64,000 nt of DNA from an uncultured Bacteroidales bacterium (GTDB lineage: Bacteria; Bacteroidota; Bacteroidia; Bacteroidales; VadinHA17): assembly GCA_963732435.1 (NCBI GenBank), contig CAVSZL010000008.1, positions 34,546-98,545 of the forward strand, given 5' to 3'. Numbering within the stretch: the stretch's first letter is position 1; the number at the start of each line of letters is the position of its first letter. Positions 14,245 through 16,646 of this stretch are shown here, one piece after another. The notes below the pieces were generated by a model. The model made no database searches and was not told the DNA's origin. It was given only the letters and a program-made list of their open reading frames with translations. The translations under genes and the position numbers were made by a program.

Positions 14245-16646
14245 AAAAAAATACAACCTCCATTAATATCGTATTCATTGTGTTAATGACAATTATAGTC
14301 ACACACACATCCTGTACGAAAAACCAGACTGAATCTAAAGAAATGGTCCTGTGGTATAATAAACCTGCAGATAAAGTATGGCTGGACGGATTATTCATTG
14401 GGAATGGCTACATGGGTGCCAATGTATTCGGGAGAGTGCAGAACGAGAGAATAGCTCTGAATGAGTCTACTTTCTGGTCAGGCAAGCCTCATGATTATAA
14501 CGATCCTGATGCCGGCAAGTATTTCGGGCAAATTAAAGATCTTGTATTTGCTGAAAAATTCAAGGAAGCTGAAAAGCTGGCAGATGAACATTTTTATGGA
14601 ATACCGGCTGCACAGCAGGCATATGCGCCTGTTGGAGACCTTCTCCTGGACTTTAAAGTTACAGGTGATTCCATAAAAGATTATTACCGCGAGCTGGATA
14701 TGGAAACCGGAATTGTCAGAGTCAGCTATACCGATGGTGATGTAAAGATGACACGTGAAGTATTCATGTCTTATCCCGACCATGTTATGGTCATGAAAGT
14801 GTCGGCAAATAAACCCGGAAAGGTATCTGTAGAAGCTAAGTTAAAAAGTCCTTTTAAAGAAGAAATAATAGCAAAAGATGGCAAACTGATCCTGAACGGG
14901 ATGTGGAGATATCTTCCCGAAAAAGACAGCTGGCTCATTGCCAGGGTTGAAGGAACAGGAATGAGATTCCAGACTGCCATTACCGCTATTCCTGAAAAAG
15001 GCACCCTTAAAGCAACCGATTCAAGTCTTGTTGTTTCTGATGCCAATTCTGTTACATTTTTACTCACATCCGCAACAAGTTTTTTAACTTATAAAGATAT
15101 AAGCGGAGATCCTGCAACTGCCTGTGAAAAAATTCTGACTGCAACTAATGGTAAAGACTTTAATACACTTAAAAATACTCATTTAAGTGATTTCAGTAAT
15201 CTTATGAGCAGAGTGCATCTTAAAATTGGCGACCCTTTAAAGAATCAAAAACCAACTGATGAAAGAGTTGCTGATCTTAAGAAAGGCCTCAAAGACCCGG
15301 ACCTGCTATCTAAAATATTTCAGTTTGGCCGTTATATTCTGGTTTCAAGCAGCAGAACAGGAAGTGAACCTGCTAATTTACAGGCAAGATGGAACCAGGA
15401 TCTGCTGCCCAACTGGGGAAGTAAATATACCATCAATATCAATACAGAAATGAATTACTGGCCAGCCGAAGTAACAAACCTGTCGGAGACACACACACCA
15501 TTATTTCACATGATAAAGGATCTGGCCGAAAACGGTTCTAACACAGCAAAAATTTATTACAGCGCCGGTGGCTGGGTGGCTCATCATAATACTGATCTGT
15601 GGAGGGGTACAGCTCCTGTTGATGCAGCACGCTATGGAATGTGGCCGGTTGGAGGCGTATGGCTTTGTCAGCATATCTGGGAACATTACCTTTTTACAGG
15701 AGATGCGGACTTTCTCAGAGAATATTATCCGGTAATGAAAGGGGCTGCCCAGTTCCTGATGGACATTATGGTAATACATCCCAAATATAACTACCTGGTG
15801 ATTCCATTCTCAATGTCACCTGAACAGGGCTTTTTTGTCAGAGAGGGTGCAGAAGAGACCTTCCTGGCGCCGACAACAACAATGAATATTGGAATGGTCA
15901 AAGATCTTTTTCCTCATTGTATTGAGGCTGCTAAAATCCTTAATGTTGATCAGGATTTCAGTGCAAAACTCGCAGATGCACTCGAAAAAATACCACCATA
16001 CATGATCGGTAAGGATGGTTTACTTCAGGTTTGGATAGAGGATTGGATAAGGGGCAATGAAGGACATAATATGTCTGCTAACTTCGGTTTCTTTCCGGGC
16101 AATTCCATAACGTTGAGGGGAAATCCGGAAATTGCTGCGGCAATTCAAAAATGGCTTGAGCCACGTCGGTCAAGATTAAGCTGGACAAGCGCATGGGATA
16201 TCTGTGATTGGGCAAGACTTGAAAATGGGGTAAGGGCAGATACGGCAATTAACCAGTTTTTCAGGGTTACACCAATGAGAAGTGGCGAAGGAGGTAATCA
16301 GATGCCAAGGCAGGTATTGGTAATAACCTTCATAATCCCAGCAGCAACCAGTCGGATGCCAATTTCGGATTTACTGCAGGAGTTGCCGAGTGTCTGCTTG
16401 CAGAGTCACGCAGGAGAAATCTCATTACTGCCGGCATTACCCCCCAGCTGGGATAAAGGTATCGTAACAGGATTAAGAGCCAGAGGTGGATTTGAAGTAA
16501 ATATGAGTTGGGAAAATGGACTCCTTAAAACGTGTGAAATAAAATCAATTCTGGGAAATCCTTGCATTGTGGGATATGGTGAGAAGACCAAAAGTTATGA
16601 TATCCCGGCAGGAACATCAATAAATATTACCGCAGAACTATTATAA
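14241..16646 (+). CDS. GH95 alpha-L-fucosidase/alpha-L-galactosidase family protein; continuous ORF with an internal out-of-frame segment (see findings)
   Basis: Lipoprotein-type signal (..THTSC). GH95 N-terminal motif [10 protein letters not shown]...[11 protein letters not shown]...ESTFWSG and C-terminal [18 protein letters not shown]...[10 protein letters not shown]. The start overlaps the GH51 stop (ATGA at 14241-14244). Confidence 0.8.
   Translation: [801 protein letters not shown]

Follow-up and report, generated by a model that had tools for sequence, protein, structure and literature searches.

Two opposite single-base indels displace the active-site aspartate segment of a GH95 glycoside hydrolase gene in an uncultured Bacteroidales assembly

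Background

Glycoside hydrolases of family GH95 are configuration-inverting enzymes. Their catalytic residues have been described in two systems that serve as references here. In AfcA, the 1,2-alpha-L-fucosidase of Bifidobacterium bifidum (PDB 2EAB/2EAE), Glu566 acts as the acid, Asn421 and Asn423 hold the attacking water, and Asp766 activates Asn423 (PMC11943901). In BACOVA_03438, the GH95 alpha-L-galactosidase of Bacteroides ovatus (PDB 4UFC), Thr370, Asn372, and Asn374 correspond to AfcA His419, Asn421, and Asn423, and Glu501 was named as the general acid (PMC4491172). The present analysis concerns a GH95 gene carried by a 64,000-nucleotide stretch of an uncultured Bacteroidales bacterium (assembly GCA_963732435.1, contig CAVSZL010000008.1, positions 34,546 to 98,545), referred to below as the window. 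Within this gene, the segment encoding the counterpart of AfcA Asp766 lies one base out of register between two indels of opposite sign.

Two further bodies of work are relevant to the interpretation of such a structure. Compensatory frameshift pairs consist of close, opposite-sign indels that restore the reading frame and replace the residues between them; those reported by Biba et al. (2022) are found in poorly conserved parts of genes whose selection is relaxed, with support across species (PMC8935012). Residual indels constitute the second precedent. The Microflora Danica assemblies were built from Nanopore reads only, with a single round of Medaka polishing to lower indel errors (PMC12313526).

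The GH95 protein of the window shares with BACOVA_03438 the same three Pfam domains, and the repaired protein (defined below) aligns collinearly over its full length with the crystal structure (E = 6e-160). Both display a T-I-N-I-N motif, whose Thr discriminates L-galactosidase from fucosidase, together with the Asn pair and the Glu general acid, and both are encoded among xylan or arabinan debranching enzymes. Unlike BACOVA_03438, the window gene as written has no in-frame Q.D.NFG.TAG.AE.LL stretch, and its 64 kb of context contain no SusC/SusD pair. AfcA is a more distant reference (E = 5e-56). The Asp of the displaced QSDANFG aligns with its Asp766, whereas the annotated frame has Met at that position, and AfcA carries His419 where the window protein has Thr397 (PMC4491172). 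The pair itself differs from those of Biba et al. in that it brackets a near-invariant catalytic stretch, displays no evolution in the new frame, and occurs in a single assembly. Its likeness to the Microflora Danica metagenome-assembled genomes (MAGs) is that their GH95 orthologs also contain frameshifts, which fall mostly away from long homopolymers (loci L026, L058, L069, L071, and L078). Those frameshifts are nevertheless uncompensated and break the open reading frame (ORF), while the window has no other broken gene.

A compensated indel pair in the GH95 gene

The features that define the pair are as follows.

14241..16646, forward strand: GH95 glycoside hydrolase ORF, uninterrupted, 801 amino acids as written (ORF call, Pfam)
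16295..16297, forward strand: TAA stop that bounds the displaced (3n+2) frame on its upstream side (translation)
16308..16313, forward strand: upstream indel site; AGG (Arg, last correct frame-0 codon, 16308-16310), then just CA before GGT (DNA alignment)
16313..16399, forward strand: segment with the 29-residue family peptide, one base out of register (translation, homologs, substitution pattern)
16397..16400, forward strand: downstream indel site CTG-C-TT-G-CAG, with one extra base (DNA alignment)

The deposited sequence bears a -1/+1 indel pair, and thirty codons are consequently translated in the wrong frame. With frame 0 taken as the codons starting at positions divisible by 3, the window is correct in frame 0 through NQMPR, follows frame 2 from GGT at 16313, and regains frame 0 from CAG at 16401 (QSHAGE). 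The family sequence from 16311 to about 16399 sits in the -1 frame relative to the ORF. When 16260-16440 is aligned by MAFFT with the eight nearest relatives at the DNA level (75-78% identity), exactly two length differences emerge, both confined to the window. The first is a single-column gap between AAGGCA and GGTATT, which places the missing base within 16311-16313; homologs read MPR-G-GIGNN across this site in a single frame. The second is an insertion in CTG[C]TTGCAG, where CTG-TTGCAG or CTT-TTGCAA stands in the relatives. The extra base may be any of C16397, T16398/T16399, and G16400, as the deletion of each yields L-L-Q(-S-H), and C16397 is favored by the homolog DNA (CTG-TTGCAG). The two sites are 86-89 nt apart. 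The indels are opposite in sign, neither is a multiple of 3, and the ORF remains open.

Protein comparisons lead to the same picture. About 40 close homologs carry the whole segment in a single frame, and the frame-2 peptide recurs near letter-for-letter in homologs of 73-80% identity. Compared with homolog P0003, 28 of 33 residues are identical in the alternative frame, against 5 of 33 in the annotated one. The as-written protein matches PF22124 only as far as profile position 374 of 408 (residue 678), and with the next domain starting at residue 721, approximately 40 residues are left unmatched. When the 3n+2 peptide is spliced in and one base is dropped near 16400, the repaired fragment regains profile positions 330-408 and scores 43 bits in place of 19. 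Over its whole length, the repaired protein can be aligned with 2rdy, 7kmq, and 4ufc, with no interruption in the motif Q(I/S)D(G/A)NFG.TAG.AE.LLQSH.

These results bear out the core of an earlier sequence-only reading, which had described a 1-nt loss and a 1-nt gain within an uninterrupted ORF that scramble the segment holding the conserved Asp; protein comparisons and nucleotide alignment both lead there. Translation, homologs, and structures also agree with its placement of the GH95 motif in the 3n+2 frame over 16298-16399, bounded upstream by the TAA at 16295-16297. Its upstream switch and downstream skip are likewise real features of the sequence, with the loss now narrowed to 16311-16313, the gain assigned to any of 16397-16400 and not to G16400 alone, and a spacing given as about 100 nt tightened to the distance above. 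The same reading held that the frame-0 peptide matches nothing in GH95. This is correct for the scrambled part but slightly too broad, given that the residues through NQMPR (to 16310) are still in the proper frame. No homolog aligns to the frame-0 peptide of the scrambled part, and all homologs carry D.NFG.TAG.AE.LL.

A search for similar cases required a dedicated procedure, as tblastn culls nested matches in another frame and is therefore blind to compensated pairs. A custom scan, directed at low-identity stretches in about 85 related GH95 genes, revealed no further compensated pair.

The two indel sites display some local sequence features of their own. Each indel lies immediately 5' of a (G)CAG, and the sites (16306-16313 and 16394-16400) are partly complementary, with CAAGGCAG and CTGCTTG pairing over 7 bp with one bulge. 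In an RNA fold of 16300-16420, the two sites pair together at the base of a long G-U-rich stem, although the fold is not significant. An origin by quasi-palindrome template switching was considered and rejected, given that equivalent complementarity arises in 4% of random placements and that both arms would need changing. The complementarity is probably due to chance.

Identity of the gene and consequence for the enzyme

The gene is GH95 by descent, and its product as written fails one defining catalytic feature. The relevant positions are listed below.

15429..15443, forward strand: active-site T-I-N-I-N with Thr397, Asn399, and Asn401, intact and in frame (invariant columns)
15822..15824, forward strand: Glu528 in SPEQG, presumed general acid, intact and in frame (invariant column; aligns with SPEHG of 4ufc)
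16355..16357, forward strand: GAT, Asp of QSDANFG, AfcA Asp766 equivalent, in the displaced frame only (structure-chain alignment)
16401..16592, forward strand: GH95 C-terminal beta-sandwich domain, ORF frame regained (Pfam, structure alignment)

Pfam recognizes three domains in the as-written protein, namely PF14498 (residues 37-282, E = 3e-61), PF22124 (residues 307-678, E = 2e-133), and PF21307 (residues 721-784, E = 6e-22). They reproduce the GH95 architecture of an N-terminal beta domain, an (alpha/alpha)6 catalytic barrel, and a C-terminal beta-sandwich. Asn399 and Asn401 form the invariant Asn-x-Asn pair for the nucleophilic water (counterpart of AfcA Asn421/Asn423), and Glu528 is the counterpart of AfcA Glu566 and BACOVA_03438 Glu501. 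Overall, the gene appears to be an ordinary GH95 exo-glycosidase with a Thr-type active site, as in the B. ovatus alpha-L-galactosidase. Thr397 (15426-15464 region) is invariant across 40 aligned sequences. The Thr at this discriminating position makes an L-galactosidase-like specificity plausible for the window enzyme, and the entire GH95 clade sharing it may have L-galactose as its substrate instead of L-fucose.

The defect is restricted to the segment between the indels. The Asp displaced from frame falls at index 766 in chain 2eae and at 767 in chain 2eab, and allowing for the one-residue offset in indexing, it would be the equivalent of AfcA Asp766. The annotated frame has no Asp within Q.D.NFG and reads Met706 at this position. 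None of the 11 columns within residues 691-720 that are invariant among 39 homologs is kept in the annotated frame; 22 of these 30 positions are conserved at 85% or more among the same homologs, and the window deviates at all 22. The residues read out of frame include the Asp that activates the catalytic Asn pair and, within the catalytic domain, the adjoining TAG.AE.LL stretch. If the sequence is read literally, the product is expected to be catalytically dead, because a required active-site Asp is missing according to the roles reported for AfcA. An AlphaFold2 model of the as-written protein (40 sequences) reached a mean predicted local distance difference test score of 62 with many core regions below 50, so the low confidence at residues 676-714 is non-specific.

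Age of the pair and state of the gene

The pattern of substitutions indicates which frame has been under selection. Over 16313-16396 there are 142 nucleotide differences to the eight relatives, and 123 of them affect third codon positions in the displaced frame. In this frame, the comparisons with loci L070 and L047 give 12 and 17 synonymous codon differences, respectively, and no nonsynonymous ones. Outside the segment, 261 of 262 family-invariant columns are kept (39 homologs), and the window deviates at just 6 of the columns conserved at 85% or more, where intact homologs have 5-34 deviations (leave-one-out). The canonical, displaced frame is therefore under normal purifying selection essentially to the present, and there is no decay in the remaining gene. 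Since substitutions follow the displaced frame and the rest of the gene is undecayed, both indels are either extremely recent or non-biological. Purifying selection in the canonical frame up to the present also excludes an old frame-shifted variant that has adapted to its new sequence.

The sole deviation among the 262 invariant columns is Gly778 (GGA, 16572-16574), where 39 of 39 homologs have Arg. Its codon lies 172 nt downstream of the second indel and could represent a third local anomaly or a plain substitution.

Origin of the pair

A consensus artefact in the assembly is the reading we favor, and we give it about an even chance. The likeliest origin would be a pair of local miscalled indels in the consensus of the metagenome-assembled contig, and the organism itself probably holds an intact enzyme. 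Of 80 related loci, 19 come from Nanopore-only Microflora Danica MAGs, and 5 of these 19 have a frameshifted GH95 gene, against none of the other 61 (hypergeometric probability about 5e-4). These frameshifts, all uncompensated, lie near 5135 in L026, 4867 in L058, 3220 in L069, 3830 in L071, and both 4650 and 5190 in L078. Their junction zones contain no long homopolymer except one 6-A run in L071. The protein collection holds a single protein identical to the 801-residue translation of the window gene (P0001, NCBI/ENA), which is nameless and forms a cluster of one; the next matches are 79-80% identical. The record type of P0001 (NCBI and ENA, unannotated, on a long contig) is like that of the Microflora Danica MAG protein P0119, which is locus L010. 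The location of the pair points in the same direction. Real compensated pairs have been reported from poorly conserved segments (PMC8935012), whereas this one brackets one of the most conserved stretches of GH95. Compensation is hardly selectable there, because the pair sits in a near-invariant catalytic stretch.

Two observations concern other irregular GH95 genes in related assemblies. The second GH95 copies in L027 and L064 change frame several times. In addition, P0124, P0139, P0172, P0186, P0228, and P0231 are C-terminal GH95 fragments of 176-363 amino acids located mid-contig on contigs of 63-450 kb, and they resemble additional GH95 genes split by frameshifts in long-contig assemblies.

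Several results weigh against an artefact. Stop-to-stop ORFs densely tile the 64 kb window, and Pfam scans, which covered 50 of the 53 ORFs, give complete domains, with no split gene. The window contains 77 homopolymer runs (A/T of at least 7, G/C of at least 5), yet no broken ORF was found in it. A codon-likelihood scan of the window revealed no second convincing out-of-frame stretch. The GH95 segment ranks second in that scan, and the top match, at 63579-63662 inside mnmG, was discarded as a false positive whose in-frame peptide is canonical MnmG. Such general accuracy of the consensus makes a double miscall harder to accept. In that wrong frame, a mere 18% of 29-codon windows are stop-free, and two independent miscalls of opposite sign, 87 nt apart and without a stop, are improbable a priori at such a low error density. 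Moreover, the link to Nanopore sequencing comes from the MAGs of relatives and not from the window's own platform, and a consensus indel in a short-read assembly is usually a real variant.

The principal competitor is that the pair is real and represents a very recent GH95 null allele, produced by two hits or by one clustered mutational event, which would make the gene a cryptic pseudogene called intact. We place this slightly below an even chance. The local consensus looks accurate, with no other broken gene found despite the many homopolymer runs, and neither indel lies in a long homopolymer. The GH95 gene is the last in a co-directional array and is followed by a convergent gene, so that losing it would not cause polar effects. 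The frequent loss of accessory carbohydrate-active enzyme genes also counts for a real allele. Rough rate estimates suggest that real and artefactual compensated pairs are of a similar order of magnitude per genome. On the other side, a neutral second hit would need the right sign and a target of about 150 nt, and it would have to come ahead of every other indel or nonsense mutation in the 2.4-kb gene; we estimate this at a few percent at best. Selection for compensation offers little help, as the scrambled stretch holds the Asp766 equivalent. The confinement of frameshifted GH95 genes to the Nanopore MAGs and the lack of another compensated pair among the related genes speak against a real allele as well.

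The lack of a second sampling also counts against a real allele, as no same-species sequence appeared in JGI metagenomes, genome representatives, or the protein collection. In JGI metagenomes, searches for same-species DNA gave zero matches, both to the 47-mer located between the indels and to a pattern that spans the first site and tolerates an indel. The scan of genome representatives returned 80 relatives and no same-species sequence, the best having 78% DNA identity. A protein search for same-species pieces with the repaired C-terminal fragment gave a best match of 83% identity.

It is very improbable that the pair is real and tolerated, with a protein that functions despite 30 replaced residues, either through an altered active site or as a non-catalytic glycan-binding pseudoenzyme. 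The open ORF and the intact N-terminal domain, most of the barrel, Glu528, Asn399, Asn401, and C-terminal domain are compatible with such a product. However, the replaced stretch never evolved in the new frame, with substitutions tracking the old one, and it preserves none of the 11 invariant positions. It also forms the end of the catalytic barrel including the active-site Asp, for which misfolding or inactivity is expected. The specific form in which the pair has been fixed and a dead GH95 scaffold is retained, for example as a glycan-binding pseudoenzyme in the debranching cluster, has an equally slim chance. If true, a compensated frameshift spanning the active-site Asp would have created a newborn pseudoenzyme in a single step.

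Programmed recoding, in which ribosomes would shift -1 near 16311 and +1 near 16398 to yield the canonical enzyme, has as its sole support the canonical peptide open in the other frame between the two sites, and it is effectively refuted by the lack of an X XXY YYZ heptamer in 16296-16313, by a CTT-GCA at the second site (CTT 16397-16399) with no following stop, rare codon, or hungry codon, by an RNA fold of 16300-16420 at -31.2 kcal/mol against a shuffle mean of -29.8 (z = -0.41), and by the single frame used in 39 homologous proteins and 80 loci, none of which shares the change. To our knowledge, no described system combines a -1 and a +1 shift in tandem. The ranking of recoding as the least likely cause in the sequence-only reading thus stands.

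Implications for annotation

A compensated indel pair is a known kind of event, ordinary as an artefact or as a knockout, and it raises no new biological question. Its relevance lies in annotation quality. ORF callers and domain scans pass this GH95 gene as intact, with a catalytic-domain E-value of 2e-133, despite a missing active-site residue. The sequence-only reading had anticipated this outcome for ORF callers, and P0001 indeed carries the three GH95 Pfam domains with no defect flagged. Compensated pairs escape the usual pseudogene and frameshift checks and would inflate functional inference from MAGs. As artefacts, such pairs introduce chimeric sequences into protein databases; if real, the present case provides a small example of a cryptic knockout in a polysaccharide-utilization cluster.

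Genomic context

GH95 is the final member of a co-directional array that also comprises esterases, a carboxylesterase, GH127, a GH54-type arabinofuranosidase, and GH51, with GH43 and cupin/lactonase genes nearby. Positions 1-25200 of the window form a dense cluster of carbohydrate-active enzymes with no SusC/SusD pair in view. Its content is as follows.

1-25200: five PF00756 esterase ORFs (one with CBM48), a PF00135 carboxylesterase, GH127, GH51, and GH95
1-25200: a 1076-amino-acid GH54-type arabinofuranosidase with NPCBM_assoc and LTD domains
1-25200: a GH43 with GH43_C2, and an FAD oxidoreductase

This content suggests a role in the debranching of arabinoxylan or pectin side chains. The esterase ORFs at 639-1721, 5402-6613, and 20633-21898 all match the PF00756 profile (251 positions) over positions 1-150 only. 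An identical truncation in three paralogs points to a divergent PF00756 subfamily rather than to damaged genes. A fourth PF00756 esterase ORF (1739-3712, 658 amino acids) has two matches to the profile.

Convergent with GH95 lies a reverse-strand gene (17012-18949) for a secreted-looking fusion of 645 amino acids that combines a cupin with an SMP-30/gluconolactonase beta-propeller. It is followed by a two-cupin protein at 19069-20487.

GH95 copy number varies among the related loci. Locus L007 holds two adjacent GH95 copies at 2980-7947, each 65-76% identical to protein P0013, and contig MWDJ01000011.1 (L047 and L075) carries two copies that are 70-83% identical to P0003. The window has one GH95 copy only.

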